The notes beneath the pieces were generated by a model. It was not told the DNA's origin. It did no database searches and was given only the letters and a program-made list of their open reading frames with translations. A DNA stretch of 64,000 nt from an uncultured Gemmatimonadales bacterium. Its GTDB lineage: Bacteria; Gemmatimonadota; Gemmatimonadetes; Longimicrobiales; Gaopeijiaceae. Of this stretch, positions 7,826 to 17,115 are shown piece by piece. A program made the translations under genes and the position numbers. The stretch is taken from the NCBI GenBank assembly GCA_963809895.1, contig CAWELD010000003.1, forward strand, positions 2,880,001 through 2,944,000. The letters run 5' to 3'. The first letter of the stretch is position 1. Every line of letters starts with the position of its first letter.

Positions 7826-8221
7826 TCAAGGCGGCCGGACGAAGGACTCGAAGAGACGATCGAGCTCGACGGCCGGATGGTCACAGACGCCCTCGTGCAC
7901 CGGCGAGCACTGCAGCACGTCCGATCGGGGTGACGTGATCCAGTGGAAACGCTCCGAGGGCGGCGCCAGCGCCACCGGTCCCGCTTCGGCGTCACCCTGG
8001 CAGACCGCCCGCGCCGACAGCAGATAGCGCTGGAGCAGCTCCACATCGGTCTCGGGCACGCGACGCCGCAACTCGGCAGCATCGTCCAGAACGCGGATCC
8101 CGAGGTACTCGCGGGTGCGGGCGTGGAGCACGACCCCGACGTTGGTGAACGCGCCGAGATGAACGTGCGGCACCGCGCGCAGCACGGCGAAGGCGTAGGC
8201 GACCGAGCCCTCGGAGCTCAT
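7826..8221 (-). CDS. DUF3037 family protein (partner of HipA-like kinase)
   Basis: YAFAVLRAVP...FTNVGVVL...ERFHWITSPRSDVLQCSPVHEG pattern; ATGA overlap with the upstream kinase. Confidence 0.85.
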   Translation of the reverse strand: MSSEGSVAYAFAVLRAVPHVHLGAFTNVGVVLHARTREYLGIRVLDDAAELRRRVPETDVELLQRYLLSARAVCQGDAEAGPVALAPPSERFHWITSPRSDVLQCSPVHEGVCDHPAVELDRLFESFVRPP

Positions 8222-9051
8222 CGCCGGGCCTGCAGCCGAGTGGGAGGGCTGTCCGCTCGGCGCTGCTTGGCGGCGGCGGCTTCCTCCACGAACGCGCGCC
8301 GGGCGCCGAGGCGAGTGAGGAGGTAGCGCCGGTAGCGGGCACGGGCCTCGTCGCCGGTGGTGAACGGATCCACCTCGGGTCGGTCCAGGAGGAGATCGTC
8401 GGGCACGGCCTGGAGCACGTCGGTGAGCAGCTCGGGGGTCAGGCGCGCGCTCATGCGACGGTCGGCGTCGCCGAGGTCTCCGGCGCGGGCCAGGAGCACG
8501 TGATCGCGGATCAGCGCGAAGGGCGTCGTGGTCCTCGCGTCGTCCACGCGGCTCCAGTCGTGGTGGGCGTACAGGGCGGCGCCGTGATCGATGAGCCAGG
8601 CACGCCGCTCCCAGACCAGCAGATTGGGGTTGCGGTGCGTGCGGTCGGGGTTGGTGACGTATGCATCGAACCACACCAGATCTGCCGCGAGCTCCGCCGA
8701 TACCAGCTCACCGGCCGCCATCTCGTCGTAGTTGAAGGCACCGTCGAGATAGCGCATGGCCACGTTGATTCCGTGGCTGGCCCGCAAAATGTCCTGGATC
8801 TCGGGATCGGGCTCCTGGCGCCCGAAGGCCGGCGCCACCTCGATGAGCGCCAGGTCGGGGACCGGGAGGCCGAGCTCCCGGGCGAGCAGTCCCACCACCA
8901 GCTCGGCGACGAGGGCCTTGGCACCCTGGCCCGCACCGCGGAACTTCGCGACGTAGAGGCCGTCGTCGGTGTCCACGACCGCCGGCAGCGATCCGCCCTC
9001 CCGAAGAGGCTGCACGTACCGGGTGGCCCGGTGCTTCGCCAGCTCGATCAT
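8218..9051 (-). CDS. HipA-like (HipA_2 type) kinase
   Basis: YVQPLREGGSLP, YVAKFRGAGQG-KALVAE, NPDRTHRNPN catalytic loop and LIDHG Mg-binding motif. Confidence 0.85.
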   Translation of the reverse strand: MIELAKHRATRYVQPLREGGSLPAVVDTDDGLYVAKFRGAGQGAKALVAELVVGLLARELGLPVPDLALIEVAPAFGRQEPDPEIQDILRASHGINVAMRYLDGAFNYDEMAAGELVSAELAADLVWFDAYVTNPDRTHRNPNLLVWERRAWLIDHGAALYAHHDWSRVDDARTTTPFALIRDHVLLARAGDLGDADRRMSARLTPELLTDVLQAVPDDLLLDRPEVDPFTTGDEARARYRRYLLTRLGARRAFVEEAAAAKQRRADSPPTRLQARR

Positions 9052-9163
9052 GACGTACAGCTTACCGGGCCGGAGCGGACCGCGGGAGGGGCGGTCACGG
9101 TTGCGCACGGGAAGAGCGGTCCTCTATCGTCGATGTGAGGCCCTCCCCCAATCCCCCGGCGCC

Positions 9164-9721
9164 ATGTCCGGACCTCCGGATGTCACCCAGCTGCTGGCCG
9201 CCATTCGCGGCGGGGACCGGAGCTCGTTCGAGCCCCTCTTCCGGCTGGTCTACGAGGAGCTGTATCGGCGGGCCCATTTTCAGCGGCGAGACGGCCCCGC
9301 CACCCCCACGCTCAACACGACGGCGCTGGTCCACGAAGCCTATCTGAAGCTCGCAGGCGCCGGAAACCCGGACTGGGAGGATCGGCGACACTTCTTTCGC
9401 GTGGCCGCACGGGCCATGCGTCAGATTCTCGTGGACGCCGCCCGCCGGCGTGCCGCCGGGAAGCGGGGTGGGGGCGGACCCGTGCTGGATCTCGACGCCG
9501 CCGAGATCGGCGCCGATACGCAGGCCGACGAGATCCTGGCCCTCGAAGAGGCGCTCTCACGTCTGGAGGGCATGAATCCCCGTCTCGCGCGCGTGGTCGA
9601 GTTGCGGTTCTTCGCGGGCCTCACGGTGGAAGAGACCGCGGAGGCCATGGAGACGTCGGAGCGCACGGTGAAGCGCGATTGGCGATTGGCCCGGGCCTTT
9701 CTCCATCAGGCCCTCACATGA
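9164..9721 (+). CDS. ECF sigma factor, TIGR02999-like group (kinase-associated)
   Basis: DVTQLL, TALVHEAYLKL, HFFRVAARAMRQILVDAARRR, VELRFFAGLTVEETA, RTVKRDWRLARA. Confidence 0.92.
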   Translation: MSGPPDVTQLLAAIRGGDRSSFEPLFRLVYEELYRRAHFQRRDGPATPTLNTTALVHEAYLKLAGAGNPDWEDRRHFFRVAARAMRQILVDAARRRAAGKRGGGGPVLDLDAAEIGADTQADEILALEEALSRLEGMNPRLARVVELRFFAGLTVEETAEAMETSERTVKRDWRLARAFLHQALT

Positions 9722-12600
9722 CCGACCGACCCCTGGACTCCGCCACCTGGTCGAGGATCGAGGCCATCTTCCAGGAGGCGCTGGATCGTCCGGCCGACCA
9801 GCGCGACGCGTTCGTGCGTGTGGCCTGCGCGGGCGAAGGAGGGCTCGTAGAACGGGTCGAGGCGCTCCTGGCCGCGGACCGCGCGGGGCCGGGGCTCCTG
9901 GACACCTCTCCGCTGGAGGCCGCGGGCCTGCTCCTGGCCGGCGCCCCGTCGACGGGTGATCTTCCAGCCACCGTCCCGCTACCCCCCGATACACGGGTCG
10001 GCCCCTTCCGCGTCCTGGACGTGCTGGGACGGGGTGGGATGGGCACCGTCTACCGTGCCGAGCGCGCCGACGGGGCCTACCAGCAGCAGGTGGCGCTCAA
10101 GGTCGTGAGCGGAGGTCCGCTGGCCGGGGACCTCGAGCGGCGCTTCCTCCGGGAGCGGCAGATCCTGGCGCGCCTACAACACCCTGGGATCTCCCGGCTC
10201 CTGGACGGGGGCCTCACCGACGAGGGCCACCCCTATCTCGCCATGGAGTTGGTGGAAGGCCGACCCCTCCTGGAATGGGCGGAGGCCACGGATGCCGATC
10301 TGGAAGCCCGCATCCGGCTCATGTTGGAAATCTGCGACGCGGTGCAGTACGCCCACCGGAACCTGGTGGTCCACCGCGACCTGAAGCCCTCCAACGTGCT
10401 CGTGGATGCCGGCGGCCGGCCCCACCTGCTGGACTTCGGAATCGCCCATCTGCTGGAAGCGGACGCCGGGGATCCCGACGATGCGGCGACTCGCACGGGG
10501 ATGCTCCTGCTCACGCCGCAGTACGCCGCTCCGGAACAACTCCGCGGCGGAACCGCCACCACGGCGACCGACGTCTACTCGCTGGGGGCGGTCCTCTACG
10601 AGTTGCTGGCGCGGCGCCGGCCCTTCGAGGGCGATCTCGGGTCCTGGGAGCAGATGCTGCAATCGACCCGCGAGGATCCACCCATCATGAGCCGCGCGGT
10701 GCCCGCCGACGAGGTTCACCTCCGGCGGTCGCTCCGGGGGGATCTGGATACGATCGTGGCCAAGGCGCTCCGACGGCAGCCGGAGCGGCGCTATCCGTCG
10801 GTCGAGGCCCTCGCCGACGATCTAGAACGGTATCTGGCGCAGCGCCCGGTGTCGGCACGGCCCGACACCCTGACCTACCGCCTCGGCCGCTACGTGCGCC
10901 GGCACAGAACCGGAGTGGCCGCCGCCCTGACCGTGGCCGTGGCCCTGGTAGCGGGCCTGGCGTCGACGGCCTGGCAGGCCCGGGCCACGCGCCTCGAGGC
11001 CAGGCGCACGCGCGAGGTGAGCGACTTCCTCTTCAGCCTCTTCGACGCCGCCGACCCCGAGCAGAATGCCGGCGTCATTCCCGACGCCCGCGAGCTCCTG
11101 GACCGAGGTGCCGCGCGCGTCCGGTCGCTCGGCACCGGCGCGGGCCCGGAGATCCGCGCGGACATCTTCACCACGCTGGGTCTCCTCTACCAGAAGCTCG
11201 GCCTGCTGGAGCGGGCGGACACGCTGCTGCGAGAGGCGGTCGAACTCGCCCAGAGCTCGCTGGGCGACGACGAGCGGACCGCGCGGGCGTTGGGCGCCCT
11301 GGGCACGGTGGCCATCGACGAAGGGCGCTACCAGGAGGCGGAGGACGTGCTGCGGCGGAGCCTCGAGCTTCGCGACCGGATCGGCTCTCCGGACACGCTC
11401 CGCGCCGAGGCGCTGGGGAACCTGGGAGTTCTGCAGAGCGTCGCGGGGCGCCTGGACAGCGCCGTGGCGCTCCATCGCCGCGCGCTGGCCATAGACCGTC
11501 GGGCATTGGGCCCCGCCGCTCCGCGGGTGGCCACGGACCTCAACAACCTGGGGCTCGCCCTGGACGGAGCCGGGAATCCCGAGGAAGCCGAGCCGTTGCT
11601 GCGCGACGCGCTGCGCATTCGCCTGGCCGCCTACGGGGAGCGCCACCCGCTGGTGGCCGCGAGCTACGCCAACCTGGCCGCGCCCGTGGGCAGTCTGGGC
11701 GACCTGGCCGGCGCCGAAGCACTCCACCGGAAGGCGCTGGCGATCCGCCGGGAAATCTACGGCAGCGAGCACCCGGACATCGCCCGCGCCCTGGACCAGA
11801 TCGCCCTGTACGCCGACCAGCAGGGGCGCTTCCACGAGGCAGACAGCCTCTATCGCGAAGCGTTGGCCATGAGGCGGCGGCTTCTCGGAGAGGACCATCC
11901 GGACGTGGCCGCAACGCTGAACAACCTCGCCACGCTTCGCTACCGCATGGGCGACTACGCCGGGGCCGCTGCTGCCCAGGTGGAAGTGGTGCGGCTGTGG
12001 AAGGAGAGCCTGGGGCCGGAACACGCGAACTACGCCACCGCCCTCAACAACCTGGGCGTCATGCGGATGAAGGCCGGCGATCCGGTCCAGGGAGAACGGG
12101 ACCTGGAAGAAGCCCTGGCCCTGCGAAGGCGGATCCGGGGCGAGATGCACGAAGACGTGGGCGCCAGTCTCCTCAACGTGGGGGACGCCCGGCGTGCCCG
12201 AGGGCGCCTTTCGGAGGCGGACTCCCTGTACAGGGCGGGGCTCGTCGTGCTCCGCGAATCCACGGTGCCGGGGCACTGGCGCCGTGCCGACGCCGAGGTG
12301 CGCCTGGGGCGCGTGTTGGTGGAGGAGGGGCGTCCCGGTGACGCGATCGACATCCTGCGTGACGGGCTGGACATCCGCGAGGCCACCTTCGTAGAGGACG
12401 ACCTGCGCATCGCCGAGGCCCGCCTGTGGCTGGGCGTTGCCCTGGCCCATGCGGGCAGCACCGCCGAGGCCCGGCCCCTCCTCTCGGAGGCTCGGGACAG
12501 CTACCTGGAGCAGAGGGGACCGGACGACGCCGACGCGCTGCGCGCGGCCGCGGAGCTGGCCCGACTCGGGGCCCCTGAGCGGCCCGCCGACGGGCGGTAG
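9718..12600 (+). CDS. Membrane Hanks-type Ser/Thr protein kinase with C-terminal TPR array
   Basis: ATGA overlap with the sigma gene. GRGGMGTVY, VALK, HRDLKPSN, LDFG, YAAPEQ; one TM (GVAAALTVAVALVAGLA); then repeated units of about 42 aa of the 'G-x-x-HP-x-VA-x-x-LNNL' TPR type. Confidence 0.95.
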   Translation: MTDRPLDSATWSRIEAIFQEALDRPADQRDAFVRVACAGEGGLVERVEALLAADRAGPGLLDTSPLEAAGLLLAGAPSTGDLPATVPLPPDTRVGPFRVLDVLGRGGMGTVYRAERADGAYQQQVALKVVSGGPLAGDLERRFLRERQILARLQHPGISRLLDGGLTDEGHPYLAMELVEGRPLLEWAEATDADLEARIRLMLEICDAVQYAHRNLVVHRDLKPSNVLVDAGGRPHLLDFGIAHLLEADAGDPDDAATRTGMLLLTPQYAAPEQLRGGTATTATDVYSLGAVLYELLARRRPFEGDLGSWEQMLQSTREDPPIMSRAVPADEVHLRRSLRGDLDTIVAKALRRQPERRYPSVEALADDLERYLAQRPVSARPDTLTYRLGRYVRRHRTGVAAALTVAVALVAGLASTAWQARATRLEARRTREVSDFLFSLFDAADPEQNAGVIPDARELLDRGAARVRSLGTGAGPEIRADIFTTLGLLYQKLGLLERADTLLREAVELAQSSLGDDERTARALGALGTVAIDEGRYQEAEDVLRRSLELRDRIGSPDTLRAEALGNLGVLQSVAGRLDSAVALHRRALAIDRRALGPAAPRVATDLNNLGLALDGAGNPEEAEPLLRDALRIRLAAYGERHPLVAASYANLAAPVGSLGDLAGAEALHRKALAIRREIYGSEHPDIARALDQIALYADQQGRFHEADSLYREALAMRRRLLGEDHPDVAATLNNLATLRYRMGDYAGAAAAQVEVVRLWKESLGPEHANYATALNNLGVMRMKAGDPVQGERDLEEALALRRRIRGEMHEDVGASLLNVGDARRARGRLSEADSLYRAGLVVLRESTVPGHWRRADAEVRLGRVLVEEGRPGDAIDILRDGLDIREATFVEDDLRIAEARLWLGVALAHAGSTAEARPLLSEARDSYLEQRGPDDADALRAAAELARLGAPERPADGR

Positions 12601-12622
12601 TCCGGACCTGGTGCCACCGGCC

Positions 12623-13213
12623 TCACCGCAACCGGGACATGACGATCCCGGCCAGCGTCGCCACGGCCTCCCGCGTCGGTCCGTTCAGGAGCACCACCAC
12701 GGCGTCCTGGGCGTCCTTCTCGACCGTGGCGGTCCAGCCACCTTCGCCGGCATCACGCAACGCGGCGGCATGGCCGTCCAGCGACAGCGCACTCCAGCGT
12801 CCGCCCTCGACGAGGCTCGCCATGTCCGGGTCGGCGTCGTCCAGGTCCTCGTTCAGGCGCGCGGCGAGGGCGGCGGAGGTCGTGGGCGGGCCCCACGAGC
12901 CGCTCTGTCGGACGGTGAGGTTCACCGCATTGGGCCATCCACCGTCATAGATGCAGATCGTCACCAGGCTCCTGGGCACGCCCTCGGGGGCGTAGCCACC
13001 GTCCGCTTCCCGCCGCGTGGGCTCGGCCACCGGGACGCCGATGGCGTCTCCCACCTCGGCCGGCGTGAGGAGGGAGCACGCGTCGATGCGCGTGAGCGAT
13101 TCGGCCACCCGGCTCCCCCCTTCGGAGTCTCCGCCCCCCCCGCAGGCCAGGGTGAAGATCGGCGCGCAGAGGGCGACGCTGACGAGCGTGGGTGCGCGTG
13201 AGAACGATCGCAT
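12623..13213 (-). CDS. Hypothetical lipoprotein (DUF3558-like)
   Basis: Lipobox TLAC; IDACSLLTPAEV motif followed by a second Cys (ICIY). Confidence 0.7.
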   Translation of the reverse strand: MRSFSRAPTLVSVALCAPIFTLACGGGGDSEGGSRVAESLTRIDACSLLTPAEVGDAIGVPVAEPTRREADGGYAPEGVPRSLVTICIYDGGWPNAVNLTVRQSGSWGPPTTSAALAARLNEDLDDADPDMASLVEGGRWSALSLDGHAAALRDAGEGGWTATVEKDAQDAVVVLLNGPTREAVATLAGIVMSRLR

Positions 13214-13255
13214 GGAATCTCTCCGTTCGTTGACGTTGGACAACGTAGCACCAGC

Positions 13256-13909
13256 TCAGTCCGATCGGCGGTACCGGTCGGCCATGAACTGGTAGTAGAT
13301 GAAACCGTATCGGTCGAACCAGGCATCCTCGCCGAAGATCTGCGCCTCGCAGGCGGCGATCCCCTTCAGCGCGGCTTCGAGCGTGCCCACCAACTCCGCG
13401 TACTTGTCGTCGTAGGCAGCCTGTACCCCCTTCTGGGACGTCTGGATCTTCGTGCGCTCGCGCATCCAGGCGAGGCCCGCAACAGGGTGGACGCCCGCAA
13501 TCGCGTCGCCGAAGGCGATGGCCTCCTTGATCATGTCCTGGCTCGAGGAGTAGATGCGCCTGAGCGCTTCGAACCGGAGGCGGACCCGCTGTAGATCGGC
13601 GTAGGGTTGCTCGAAACACGCCTGGCACTCGGCCGACCCCTTGCAGCGGGAGGGCAGTTGGGGCATTCCCGGCGGAGAGGGGTCGGGATCGTACCCCGCG
13701 TCCTTCGGAGAGAACGGATCCATCCAGTCGAAGATCTTCTTGCCGCCGTCGAAGGACTTCTTGATGGGATCGTAGGCCTTCTTGCTGTTGTCCCACATCT
13801 TCTTCAGGGCGGACCAATCGTCCAGTCCGGGCGCCAGCGAGGACTGGGCGGACGCCGGCAGGTGGAACAGGGCGCACAGGCCCGCCAGGAGGAGCACGCG
13901 ACGAATCAT
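13256..13909 (-). CDS. Hypothetical secreted, mostly helical protein with Cys cluster
   Basis: Signal peptide ending ASA-Q; CKGSAECQAC plus a distal Cys; ATGA overlap with the upstream gene. Confidence 0.8.
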   Translation of the reverse strand: MIRRVLLLAGLCALFHLPASAQSSLAPGLDDWSALKKMWDNSKKAYDPIKKSFDGGKKIFDWMDPFSPKDAGYDPDPSPPGMPQLPSRCKGSAECQACFEQPYADLQRVRLRFEALRRIYSSSQDMIKEAIAFGDAIAGVHPVAGLAWMRERTKIQTSQKGVQAAYDDKYAELVGTLEAALKGIAACEAQIFGEDAWFDRYGFIYYQFMADRYRRSD

Positions 13910-14589
13910 GAGACGTTCCTCCGCACCAGGAGCACGGTAGCCAGGACCAGGAGGCCACCCGCCAGGAAAGCAGCGAGCACGACGAAGGGGACGGAGGCCC
14001 CTCGGCCCGACGCTCCCTCCGACGACGCCACGCCAGAGGCCGGCTCCAGCGACGCCCGGGTCGCGCGAAACTCCTCGGGCGTGAGGATCACGTCGTCGGC
14101 GAGGTCGGGGGTGACCTCGTCACCCACCCAGGCCACGAGTCCGAAGGCGACGGGGGTAGGTCCTGGACCCCGCACACGGATGTTCACCACACCCTCGGTC
14201 CGGAGCTCGAAGGTGACTGCGCCGTCGGGGCCCGTCGCCCCCGACCGAAGCGGGTCCGTCCATCCGTCGGCCATGAGATCCACGCGGACGTCGTCGCCGG
14301 CGGCGGACAGCACCGTGATGACCGTGGGCTGGAGAACGCTCAGGTTCCCGAGGCGTAGCTTGAGCCCCGCGCTGTCGACCTGCCCGTGACGGATGGCCAC
14401 CTCGCCCCCGGGCAACGCCGGATCCGGCCGGCGGTCCAGCACCGTGACGTCCGGTGCCGGGTCCGTGGGGTCGAAGGAGGGCACGTCTTCCCCCGCGGGG
14501 TCCTGGGCTCGGGCCTGCGGGGAAGCGACGCACAGCGCCATGGGGACGATCGCGCAGACGAGCCACCGCCGTCGTATGCTCTCCAGCAT
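13906..14589 (-). CDS. Hypothetical exported protein with C-terminal membrane anchor
   Basis: GGAGG RBS before ATG 14589, signal peptide ending ARA-Q, beta-rich core, Ser/Gly linker, C-terminal TM followed by RRN. Confidence 0.75.
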   Translation of the reverse strand: MLESIRRRWLVCAIVPMALCVASPQARAQDPAGEDVPSFDPTDPAPDVTVLDRRPDPALPGGEVAIRHGQVDSAGLKLRLGNLSVLQPTVITVLSAAGDDVRVDLMADGWTDPLRSGATGPDGAVTFELRTEGVVNIRVRGPGPTPVAFGLVAWVGDEVTPDLADDVILTPEEFRATRASLEPASGVASSEGASGRGASVPFVVLAAFLAGGLLVLATVLLVRRNVS

Positions 14590-14647
14590 GCGGTCCTCCT
14601 GTGGGGGTGCGGCGGGCGGCGGAGTTCCAACCGCCGTCATCACCCAC

Positions 14648-14680
14648 CCAGACGGAACTCCGGGCGATGAGGGGACAGGG
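14648..14680 (-). promoter_or_regulatory. Putative ECF promoter for the leftward operon
   Basis: Minus strand reads CCCTGTCCCC-N16-CGTCTGG. Confidence 0.7.
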
Positions 14681-14682
14681 CA

Positions 14683-14715
14683 CCCTGGCCCCCCGCCGTC
14701 GCACCCTGCGTCTGG
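14683..14715 (+). promoter_or_regulatory. Putative ECF promoter for the rightward operon
   Basis: Plus strand reads CCCTGGCCCC-N16-CGTCTGG, with the same spacing as the opposite-strand copy. Confidence 0.7.
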
Positions 14716-14781
14716 ATGATCGGGACCGGCGGCACACGCCCCGAACCCCGAGGTCCCGCCTGCTACCTTCCGGAGGCCCCC

Positions 14782-16179
14782 ATGCCGCGACACACCACCC
14801 TCACCCTGATGCTCCTCGCCCAGGTCATCGCCTGCGGTGCATGCGGACGCGACGGCTCGGAGGCGCGAGCTTCGTCGGACGAGGTGCCTGCCGGCGCTCC
14901 GGGGGTGGCCGATCCGGTCGCGTCGCCGGCCCCCGCTGAAGCGTCTCCAGCACCCACCACCGGGACCGGGCTCGACGGACTCCTCGCCGGCCTCGATCAG
15001 CTCGCCGATGCAGTGTCCGGAGACGAGACGCCCCTGGAGCCGTGGCCACTGGAGCAGCCGCCGGCGGGCTGGGAAGAGGCGGCGCCTGACGCCATCCCCC
15101 TGACCGAGGGCCTCACCGTCGTGACGGCCGTCGCCGAACCCCGGGGCGACTACGAGTCCATGAAGCAGGTGCGCGAGGCCGACGAGTCGTCGGTGCTCAT
15201 CCACTACCGCACCCGGAGCGACGACCCGGCGCTGCCCCGGTTGGAGCAATGGCGGCGGGTGTCACGCGAAGACCTTCGTGAAGCCCGGGGCTATCGCATG
15301 ATCTTCGGCCAGGACGACGAGTCCTCGTATCCCGGCCAGACGGCTCTGGGCGTGTCCACCGCGGTGCTGGACGCGCTCAGGCGCGGGGATCAGCCGGAGT
15401 TCGAGTTGACGGGAGACGCCGATATGTTCGCGAGCCTGATGGGGGCCGCATTCGGCGGAGATCCCGTTCCCCTCCGCGGCCAGCTTCAGCGGGTGGAAGG
15501 CCCGCCGCAGGCCGTTCCCGTCCTCCTCAACGGCAGCCGGGTCTGGCTGCCCGCCATCCACGCCCGCGGCACCCTTCAGGGACTCCTGAGCCCGTTCCCG
15601 GTGGAGTTCTGGTTCCTGGACGATTCGAGCAATCCCCTCACACTCCGCGCCCATACGACGAGCATGCGCCTTCAAGCGGTCCGCATCGACCTGCCCGCGC
15701 CCGCGGCCGTGGCCACGGAGCTGGAGAGCGCGCTGGCCTCACGGGAGTCCGCCGAACTCTTCGGCGTCTACTTCGAGTTCGCCAGCGACGAGCTCCAGCC
15801 CGAATCGGACGCCGTGTTGGACGAGGTGGCAGCCCTCCTGGAGCGACATCCCGACTGGCGGCTGCGTGTGGAGGGCCACACCGACGACGTGGGCCGCCCG
15901 GAGGACAACCTGGATCTCTCCGAGCGTCGCGCCGCCGCAGTGGTGGCGGCCCTCGCAGCCCGTGTCCCGGCGGCCGTGGACCGGCTGGAAGCCCGGGGGT
16001 TCGGGGAGACCCGTCCCCGCGAGTCCAACGAGACCCTGGAAGGGCGGGCCCGCAATCGTCGGGTGGAGCTCGCGCGCGTCGGCGCGGACGCCCTCCCTGC
16101 CCCACTCCCGGATTCCGGGCGGGGACGTTCGTGGGACCGCACCCGCATCGCAGGCCTGGCAGCCCGGAGAAACCCATGA
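14782..16179 (+). CDS. OmpA-C domain lipoprotein with large uncharacterised N-terminal domain
   Basis: GGAGG RBS, lipobox-like IACGAC, C-terminal VYFEFASDEL...VEGHTD...NLDLSERRA...GFGETRP...GRARNRRVEL. Confidence 0.9.
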   Translation: MPRHTTLTLMLLAQVIACGACGRDGSEARASSDEVPAGAPGVADPVASPAPAEASPAPTTGTGLDGLLAGLDQLADAVSGDETPLEPWPLEQPPAGWEEAAPDAIPLTEGLTVVTAVAEPRGDYESMKQVREADESSVLIHYRTRSDDPALPRLEQWRRVSREDLREARGYRMIFGQDDESSYPGQTALGVSTAVLDALRRGDQPEFELTGDADMFASLMGAAFGGDPVPLRGQLQRVEGPPQAVPVLLNGSRVWLPAIHARGTLQGLLSPFPVEFWFLDDSSNPLTLRAHTTSMRLQAVRIDLPAPAAVATELESALASRESAELFGVYFEFASDELQPESDAVLDEVAALLERHPDWRLRVEGHTDDVGRPEDNLDLSERRAAAVVAALAARVPAAVDRLEARGFGETRPRESNETLEGRARNRRVELARVGADALPAPLPDSGRGRSWDRTRIAGLAARRNP

Positions 16180-16760
16180 GCACCTTGTCGCCGATCCGCA
16201 CCGCCACCGCCCTCGCCGTCCTCGTCCTCGTCGCCGCCTGTGGACGGAGCCCGGACGCCGATCGCCCAGGCCAGGCACCGGAGACCGAGCCAGACGCGGC
16301 CGATGTGGCTCCGTCCGGCAGGGCCGCGGCCCCACGCGATGCATGCGAGCTCATGACCTCCCGAGAGGTCGCCGCGTTCTACGGGGGCGACGTGGAGGTG
16401 GTGGGCGTGCCCGATGCCGGCGCCACGTGGAGCTCCTGCCACTACACGACGCCGGAAGACGACTTTCCCTTCATGGAGCTCACCGTCTATTGGGAGAACG
16501 GCAGGGAAGAGTGGCGGAGCTGGCAGGCGGCCAACGGCGTGGCACCCTCGGTCATGGCGACGCCGGGCGTGAACGTCGATTCCATCATCCGGCCCGGTCC
16601 GGTGGCTGGGCTCGGCGACGCCGCCTACTACAGCTCCATGCTCCCGTCGCTCATCCTGGTGGGAGATCGCCTGCTCGAGATCGCCATCCCCCTGATGCCC
16701 GACGCGGAGATGCACTTCAGGACGATCGGCGAGACGCTCCTCTCCCGGTTGGATCGATAG
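16176..16760 (+). CDS. Hypothetical lipoprotein (DUF3558-like), probable paralog of 12623..13213
   Basis: ATGA overlap with the ompA-like gene, lipobox VAAC, RDACELMTSREV, SCHY, VAGLGDAAYY. Confidence 0.75.
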   Translation: MSTLSPIRTATALAVLVLVAACGRSPDADRPGQAPETEPDAADVAPSGRAAAPRDACELMTSREVAAFYGGDVEVVGVPDAGATWSSCHYTTPEDDFPFMELTVYWENGREEWRSWQAANGVAPSVMATPGVNVDSIIRPGPVAGLGDAAYYSSMLPSLILVGDRLLEIAIPLMPDAEMHFRTIGETLLSRLDR

Positions 16761-16794
16761 CGGTGAAAGACCCCGTGCCCAGGCCGGTCGGTGC

Positions 16795-17115
16795 CTATTC
16801 GCAGCAGGGCCCTTCGCGCCATCCGGCCTCCGCCGGCGGAGCCTCACCCGTGGCGTCGCCCATTTCCTCGAGGACTTCGGGCTCGAGGGAGTAGTGCACC
16901 CACCGACCCTGGCGGCGGTCGCGCACGATACCGGCGTCCTTGAGCTTCTTCAGATGGAAGGAAAGTCGCGACTGGGGGGCGCCGAGCTGCTCTTGAAGCT
17001 CACAGACACAGCGCTCGCCACCGGTGAGCAGGCGCACGATCTCGATGCGCGTCAGGTCGGCCACAGCCTGGAATCCTCGCACCAGGGCGGAATCGGGGAG
17101 GGCCGTTCTGGACAT
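16795..17115 (-). CDS. arsR: ArsR/SmtB metalloregulator
   Basis: ADLTRIEIVRLL, ERCVCEL alpha3 Cys box, QSRLSFHLKKLKDAG, RRQGRWVHYSL, C-terminal CC. Confidence 0.88.
   Translation of the reverse strand: MSRTALPDSALVRGFQAVADLTRIEIVRLLTGGERCVCELQEQLGAPQSRLSFHLKKLKDAGIVRDRRQGRWVHYSLEPEVLEEMGDATGEAPPAEAGWREGPCCE

Follow-up and report, generated by a model that had tools for sequence, protein, structure and literature searches.

In the ECF43 group of extracytoplasmic function (ECF) sigma factors, region sigma2.2 carries a Ser/Thr motif with the consensus QTTA; this motif (QTTA/STTA) is a phosphosite, and two sigma factors, EcfK of Xanthomonas citri and EcfP of Vibrio parahaemolyticus, are activated by phosphorylation, as reported (PMC13147305, PMC8999054). 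EcfK leads to a type VI secretion system (T6SS) directed against amoebae and EcfP to polymyxin resistance (PMC8999054). The 2021 ECF classification knew ECF43 only from Proteobacteria, and its bioRxiv version placed the group among those associated with kinases. Here we describe a locus in a 64,000-nucleotide stretch of DNA (the window) from an uncultured Gemmatimonadales bacterium (GenBank assembly GCA_963809895.1, contig CAWELD010000003.1, positions 2,880,001 to 2,944,000 of the forward strand), in which a sigma factor-kinase pair stands beside five genes for exported proteins. Judged by its domains and motifs, the pair is ECF43-type and thus an already-known kind of signalling pair. The five exported genes form a cassette centred on two proteins, here called BETA and HEL, which is absent from the family libraries searched, and no description of it was found in the literature searched, a collection that lacks most subscription papers. 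The whole locus had been put forward as a new envelope system in the initial annotation; the output cassette may prove to be new, but the signalling logic is that of the known ECF43 type. The locus contains the following features.

9164..9721 (+): ECF43-type sigma factor of 185 amino acids (TIGR02999, PF07638, position of the NTTA motif)
9718..12600 (+): Hanks-type Ser/Thr kinase, PknS-like, with a single transmembrane segment (TM) and an extracytoplasmic array of tetratricopeptide repeats (TPRs) (Pkinase, TPR_12, catalytic motifs)
12623..13213 (-): lipL, DUF3558-like lipoprotein (local profile of lipR-type proteins)
13256..13909 (-): HEL, Sec-exported helical hairpin protein with four Cys (conservation, model of a homologue)
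13906..14589 (-): BETA, exported beta-sandwich of predicted PPC/PliG fold with a C-terminal TM anchor and a basic tail (synteny, fold of a homologue)
14649..14677 (-): leftward candidate ECF-type promoter, TGTCCC-N17-CGTCTG (pattern match)
14686..14714 (+): rightward candidate ECF-type promoter, TGGCCC-N17-CGTCTG (pattern match), back-to-back with the leftward copy
14782..16179 (+): OMPA, lipoprotein with a predicted LolA-like N-domain and an OmpA C-like peptidoglycan-binding domain (PF00691, model, alignment)
16176..16760 (+): lipR, DUF3558 lipoprotein (PF12079)

The seven open reading frames (ORFs), the coupled ECF-kinase pair and the two divergent operons stand as initially annotated, although the interpretation built on them is only partly supported. 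The ATGA overlaps described within the exported operons are present at BETA/HEL and OMPA/lipR, and a third lies at the ECF/kinase junction. Export signals, likewise claimed for all five proteins, were found by eye: Sec-type AxA sites in HEL (ASA followed by Q) and BETA (ARA followed by Q), and lipobox-like cysteines in lipL (TLAC, C24, with a non-canonical -3 residue), OMPA (VIAC, C18) and lipR (VAAC, C22). Neither sigma70 promoters nor intrinsic terminators were found within 9000-17000.

A pattern scan for HEL returned 32 loci from GTDB genomes and 32 from metagenomes; the pattern skips the roughly 30% of family members that have Glu in their C-terminal motif, and several of the GTDB loci are cut short. 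The 32 GTDB loci span five phyla, the Gemmatimonadota, Acidobacteriota, Myxococcota, Pseudomonadota, and Bacteroidota. BETA lies within 3 kb of HEL in every one of them, and in 15 the two are fused (12/12 Bacteroidota loci and 3/20 others). An OmpA C-like domain is encoded within 4 kb in 22 loci, and 7 have the N-domain type of the window OMPA. Lipoproteins of the DUF3558-like or the flavobacterial type occur in 11, although 7 of these counts are tentative because the flavobacterial lipoprotein matches the DUF3558-like profile weakly (probability 12, E 0.0024). The co-occurrence that the initial annotation had proposed as a check is found for BETA-HEL and for OmpA, but, as discussed below, seldom for ECF43.

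That these genes are neighbours by chance is scarcely credible. It is true that the link to the regulator varies, but it is the only link that does; the constant adjacency of BETA and HEL, their fusions, and the five-gene sets in G607 (a genome of the same order as the window) and in two Nevskiaceae loci (L026/L027) refute a chance neighbourhood of BETA, HEL, OMPA, and the lipoproteins. From this comparison, BETA and HEL are the core of the cassette, proteins with an OmpA C-like domain and DUF3558-like lipoproteins are its recurrent partners, and the regulators vary by lineage. The system was first described as built around the OmpA lipoprotein, a view that does not hold: the N-domain of this component differs among lineages, and its substitutes include PD40-OmpA, DUF4892-OmpA, and flavobacterial types. 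Of 400 further genomes of the class only 2 encode BETA, and of six genomes of the genus none does, which marks the cassette as accessory and probably mobile. The longest version (L026:4723-10742) comprises DUF4892-OmpA, a stand-alone OMPA N-domain, OMPA, a double DUF3558 lipoprotein, BETA, HEL, and a small exported protein with four Cys. Two tandem copies of the cassette are present in L054 (3125-6736 and 8297-12671); the first has its BETA-HEL split into two ORFs, and the second is followed by a lipoprotein paralogue of HEL that lacks the conserved Cys.

The fused genes are informative about how the two core proteins may be made. Among the top 150 family representatives, 46 are fusions with the order BETA, TM, basic segment, hydrophobic segment, and HEL, BETA always being N-terminal. 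Behind the BETA TM, pattern matching finds a cluster of basic residues and then another hydrophobic stretch, together resembling a signal peptide, in 44/46 of these; 41/46 have a loose AxA-like site. The simplest reading is that the fusion is made as one precursor chain, which signal peptidase would cut to release HEL, so that the two proteins would be exported together at 1:1. Fusions of this kind suggest that bacteria make a polyprotein that is divided at a signal peptide inside the chain.

HEL itself matches no Pfam, NCBIfam, or PDB sequence (a profile search of the PDB gave nothing at E<0.2), and the ESM Atlas gave no usable match. A word search found 48 matches and a profile search 473 clusters at 50% identity. 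Across 400 genomes of the phylum there were just two weak matches, both with stops. The four Cys are conserved at 96-100%. The tip is rich in Gly and Ser (AFGD...G.H..AGLAW), with D135, H141, and W148 conserved, and the C-terminal helix is aromatic. In an AlphaFold model of a natural BETA-HEL fusion, the homologue L015 (mean predicted local distance difference test score (pLDDT) 80; predicted template-modelling score 0.48), HEL folds into a pair of helices, 46 and 51 residues long, and then the aromatic C-terminal helix. The prediction is accordingly of a helical hairpin of about 70 A, whose tip is rich in Gly and which two disulfides probably close; the register of the modelled hairpin suggests the pairs C89-C95 and C98-C187. 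In the flavobacterial HELs (fused genes L021-L035; 11 of 12 measured), a low-complexity insertion of 244-329 residues lies between the first two Cys, which is consistent with a loop closed by C89-C95. Several of these insertions contain repeated P-x-Y-D-x-x-G units. Nothing is appended to the flavobacterial HELs beyond the C-terminal motif that they have in common with the others, which suggests residence in the periplasm. The HEL gene of the window has a G+C content of 64.5%, below the 69-72% of its neighbours.

The main functional rival to a protective assembly, which we consider unlikely, starts from this hairpin: HEL would be a Sec-exported, membrane-attacking effector resembling the WXG100/PPE hairpins, BETA and the DUF3558 lipoproteins would be its immunity proteins or chaperones, and the whole would be a Gram-negative counterpart of the substrate operons of ESX-4. 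Strict 1:1 coupling to an upstream membrane-anchored partner, the patchy spread of the cassette, and the hydrophobic, Gly-rich tip would suit such a role, as would a weak fold match to LapD2 (Z 7.8), a value that lies inside the range of generic helical matches. In Mycobacterium abscessus, the SigM regulon, which an ECF sigma factor controls, is reported to be enriched in DUF3558 genes next to those for WXG100/PE/PPE proteins (PMC13491425), and EcfK governs a T6SS used against predators (PMC8999054). Several findings speak against an effector. No WXG100/PE/PPE Pfam match was found among 100 BETA/HEL alignment members at E<=0.05, and a likeness of the HEL C-terminus to PPE proteins found no support in this search. 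The core of HEL shows strong conservation from phylum to phylum, which is not the picture of a polymorphic toxin tip; the flavobacterial HELs tolerate their long insertion; and no conserved secretion apparatus was found in the cassette loci.

BETA has no Pfam match and found nothing in the PDB profile search at E<0.2; a word-index search with it returned BETA alone. The fold of its L015 homologue is close to PliG, an inhibitor of g-type lysozyme (Z 11.6), and to the pre-peptidase C-terminal (PPC) domain of a collagenase (Z 11.5), with a root-mean-square deviation of 2.4 A over about 100 residues and 9-10% identity. The top matches are tied between PliG and unrelated PPC-like domains, and no inhibitor function follows from them. 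BETA thus has the jelly-roll fold in common with PliG and PPC domains, but unlike them it is membrane-anchored and matches no sequence family. On the basis of the model, BETA is predicted to be a binding domain of the PPC/PliG type anchored in the inner membrane.

A distinctly improbable alternative takes the BETA TM for a sorting signal. BETA and HEL would then form an adhesin or cell-contact pair on the surface, and the OmpA protein would help in export or anchoring, as in the sortase-associated PdsO or in TraAB. BETA does end in a Gly-rich linker, a TM, and a basic tail, and jelly rolls of the PPC, collagen-binding, and claudin-binding kinds bind ligands. However, none of the C-terminal sorting models (GlyGly-CTERM and similar) reached its cut-off among 36 proteins; two proteins gave sub-threshold matches (16.9 against 29 and 16.7 against 22). 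Moreover, the cassette loci have no recurrent gene for a sortase, exosortase, or rhombosortase, and in the fusions the BETA TM continues into a second signal-like segment.

The C-domain of OMPA (residues 330-426) scores 72.2 bits against PF00691, with a cut-off of 27.2, and its D368 and R383 are nearly invariant. This Asp/Arg pair of OmpA C-like domains has a role in the binding of meso-diaminopimelate. OMPA has the C-like domain and the pair in common with Pal, TagL, PorE, PdsO, and TraB, but it falls below the cut-off of all named NCBIfam models, and its N-domain is of another kind. This N-domain (about 105-305), modelled as a curved beta-sheet (OMPA model pLDDT 82.6), has no PDB sequence match at E<0.2 and no family model, and the ESM Atlas gave only leads below 0.9. 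Its fold matches are 4fvs (BDI_3050; Z 10.9), DUF1849 (9.6), LmcA (9.3), vitellogenin (8.8), and MucB (7.6), which we take to be LolA-like sheets; the domain is accordingly modelled as a LolA-like sheet that may hold hydrophobic cargo. An earlier candidate, a DUF3108-like domain, was rejected (hhalign probability 0.1) before the fold search placed the domain among the LolA-like sheets. About 30 additional C-terminal residues (16080-16179), missing in most homologues, reach into the ATGA overlap with lipR.

For lipR, PF12079 gives 35.6 bits against a cut-off of 34.1, and the homologues in L026 and L053 pass as well. Its leftward counterpart lipL, which has conserved C-x-L and C-x-Y motifs, has no Pfam match and was recovered by a local profile seeded from lipR and a Nevskiaceae homologue. 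The two had been called paralogues, a relationship that is found at the profile level; BLAST alone gives only E=0.049. A parallel to such a gene set is found in the mycobacterial SigM/ESX-4 operons, where an ECF sigma factor co-expresses DUF3558 proteins and exported helical-hairpin proteins, as proposed here for the window. HEL differs from the SigM/ESX-4 substrates: it carries a Sec signal as well as the four conserved Cys, it matches no WXG100/PE/PPE profile, its hosts are Gram-negative, and the cassette loci revealed no type VII apparatus.

The sigma factor scores 209.8 bits against TIGR02999 (cut-off 126.15) and 190.9 bits against PF07638. At residues 51-54, NTTA stands in place of the acidic sigma2.2 motif (DxxD), and T53 is the predicted phosphosite. 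The kinase has a Pkinase domain at 98-366, a single TM at about 398-420, and eight TPR_12 stretches, and its catalytic motifs (GRGGMG, VALK, HRDLKPSN, DFG, APE) are intact. These features fit the description of ECF43 in the classification supplement (PMC7826278). EcfK/PknS and EcfP/PknT have the same Sigma70_ECF domain and sigma2.2 S/T motif. In them, too, the gene at +1 encodes a kinase that has a single TM and TPRs in the periplasm, an anti-sigma factor was not seen, and the outputs are directed at envelope threats; the output of the window is neither a T6SS nor a known set of resistance genes. By analogy with them, direct phosphorylation by the TPR kinase is predicted to activate the window sigma factor, in line with the initial remark that TIGR02999-type sigma factors pair with Ser/Thr kinases and that some ECFs are activated in this way. 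The source genome, from a phylum outside the 2021 listing, contains ten TIGR02999-type sigma factors (contigs C3, C4, and C10), most of them beside kinase-TPR genes, and related genomes contain up to nine. The closest orthologues of the window sigma factor (63-65% identity; loci L068/L069) have other neighbours. Directly after the sigma-kinase pair with 65% sigma identity, L068:9038-10003 encodes a different protein with similarity to OMPA. A second ECF43-kinase pair of the source genome (C10:591911-600755, minus strand) is followed on the same strand by an ORF of about 1070 amino acids, an OmpA C-like protein, and a DUF3558-like lipoprotein; this locus is without BETA or HEL.

Taken together, the explanation that we favour, although we hold it tentatively and at somewhat under an even chance, is that the five genes are a conserved, patchily spread cassette for an envelope-protecting assembly around BETA-HEL, periplasmic and tethered to peptidoglycan, with the adjacent sigma factor as its probable inducer. 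An envelope insult would be sensed by the periplasmic TPRs and would activate the kinase; the kinase would phosphorylate T53 of the sigma factor, and both divergent promoters would fire. Signal peptidase I would free HEL at 1:1 with BETA, and BETA, anchored in the inner membrane, would hold HEL or pass it on, so that the HEL tip could engage the membrane. OMPA would pin the assembly to peptidoglycan and may carry lipid, and the lipoproteins could act as chaperones or as partners in the outer membrane.

Several observations weigh against this explanation. The protective role is inferred by analogy. In a search of 48,161 chains, with HEL queried within the two-domain model, no specific fold family emerged, and the matches were generic for long helices (a designed pore, Z 10.7; a chemoreceptor, 8.3). 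Half of the 20 non-Bacteroidota loci, some of them cut short, have no nearby OmpA C-like domain, and wall tethering is therefore not obligatory. The 12 Flavobacteriaceae loci form one clade, so that the locus counts overstate independence. As to regulation, ECF43 adjoins the cassette in just two of the 32 GTDB loci, both of one Nevskiaceae lineage (L026/L027), some Ser/Thr kinase is present in five, and G607 has no ECF43 or kinase within 20 kb of its five exported genes. Elsewhere the cassette lies behind sigma70-like promoters, seen by eye, or behind a hybrid histidine kinase with the architecture TPR-HisKA-HATPase-REC-AraC, which is found upstream of flavobacterial cassettes. The self-contained signal-to-output module of the initial annotation is consequently not supported. 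Downstream of several flavobacterial cassettes there are also a TPR-CHAT protein and an apparent ECF/anti-sigma pair, TPR sensors thus recurring with different transducers (for these flanks on either side, L022:3621-6572 and L021:13827-17866).

The remaining points concern the promoter. The divergent gap (14590-14781) contains two back-to-back copies of TG[T/G]CCC-N17-CGTCTG, and the exact pattern occurs four times in the genome, two of them here. As had been noted at the outset, both operons thus have one motif in common, although its significance depends on block size: with blocks of 10+10 bases the copies are identical at 18/20 positions, a value reached by 1/500 dinucleotide shuffles, whereas smaller blocks lose the significance (8+8, 43/500; 6+6, 88/500), and the block sizes were chosen after the motif had been seen. 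In L026/L027, where ECF43 and its kinase directly precede the cassette, TGTCGT-N17-CGTCTA lies 5' of both the kinase and the operon (6 and 3 of 5000 shuffles) in the same TGTC-N19-CGTCT geometry, the motif having been partly defined from these sites. The ECF of this lineage is 38% identical to the window sigma factor, and its HEL is distant from that of the window on the tree. A link of ECF43 to such outputs is also favoured by the second ECF43-kinase pair of the source genome, with its OmpA and DUF3558-like genes, and by OmpA C-like genes within 4 of 49 other ECF43 loci. On the other side, a scan of 219 upstream regions around the regulators of these 49 loci found the strict motif in none, and it is not enriched near the nine other ECF43 paralogues of the source genome; no general ECF43 promoter motif was found in the loci scanned. 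The classification supplement (PMC7826278) predicts GTC at -35 and CAG at -10 for ECF43, and gives TGTC...CGTC as the ECF41/ECF42 consensus (ECF42, TGTCGAT/CGTC). The window sites have GTC in one of the two -35 boxes and CGTCT at -10.

It may accordingly be that the cassette is a true unit whose promoters are read by an ECF42-type sigma factor, ECF43 and its kinase being just neighbours. This alternative, a serious contender to which we give a little less than an even chance, concerns regulation only and fits any function of the cassette. The source genome encodes three ECF42-type sigma factors and one ECF41-like, and the genome G448 encodes one ECF42-type. A native ECF42-locus site, TGTCGA-N17-CGTC (C10 near 543165), has the identical start-to-start spacing of 23 bases, and the absence of the motif near other ECF43 loci and the different neighbours of the L068/L069 orthologues point the same way. 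However, the window sites, TGTCCC and TGGCCC, depart from TGTCGA; ECF43 came to adjoin the cassette in two lineages that are far apart and whose ECFs are dissimilar; and the Nevskiaceae motif also lies between ECF43 and its kinase, as expected of feedback inside that system. Control of the exported genes by the sigma-kinase pair, as originally claimed, thus gains from an unrelated lineage with the same arrangement and motif and loses from the 49 loci and the ECF42-like geometry; because of the latter two findings, we regard the adjacent ECF43 sigma factor as only marginally favoured as the driver of the cassette. An ECF41-type promoter-like site, TGTCAC-N16-CGTCTG, is present in the source genome on C3 near 1817837.

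It is possible, though rather unlikely, that Gram-negative bacteria have in BETA-HEL the centre of a periplasmic defence apparatus of a categorically new kind. Such an apparatus would combine a two-protein polyprotein cut by signal peptidase, a disulfide-stapled, membrane-engaging hairpin docked on an inner-membrane jelly roll, a LolA-like/OmpA lipoprotein as a wall tie, and DUF3558 chaperones. It would be a Sec-based parallel to the ESX-4 substrate operons, and different phyla would have coupled it, each independently, to sensors with TPRs in the periplasm (ECF43 kinases and hybrid histidine kinases). Two unnamed families, HEL and BETA, are defined here together with a new LolA-like domain fused to OmpA, and they occur jointly in five phyla. 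DUF3558 is familiar from the ESX-4 operons of actinobacteria; its link here to a helical-hairpin partner in Gram-negative hosts would help to assign it a role. For the ECF43 sigma factors, whose ligand and promoter are poorly known, the locus offers a candidate regulon and promoter in a lineage with ten of them per genome. Since the cassette is present in culturable hosts (e.g., Maribacter, Sinimarinibacterium, and Wenzhouxiangella species), it is open to experiment now.

Two neighbouring features flank the locus. A two-gene operon at 7826-9108 (minus strand) is divergent from the sigma gene and presumably encodes a HipA-like kinase and a DUF3037-type partner. At the other end, a gene for an ArsR-like regulator, recognized by eye (16795-17115, minus strand), is convergent with lipR.

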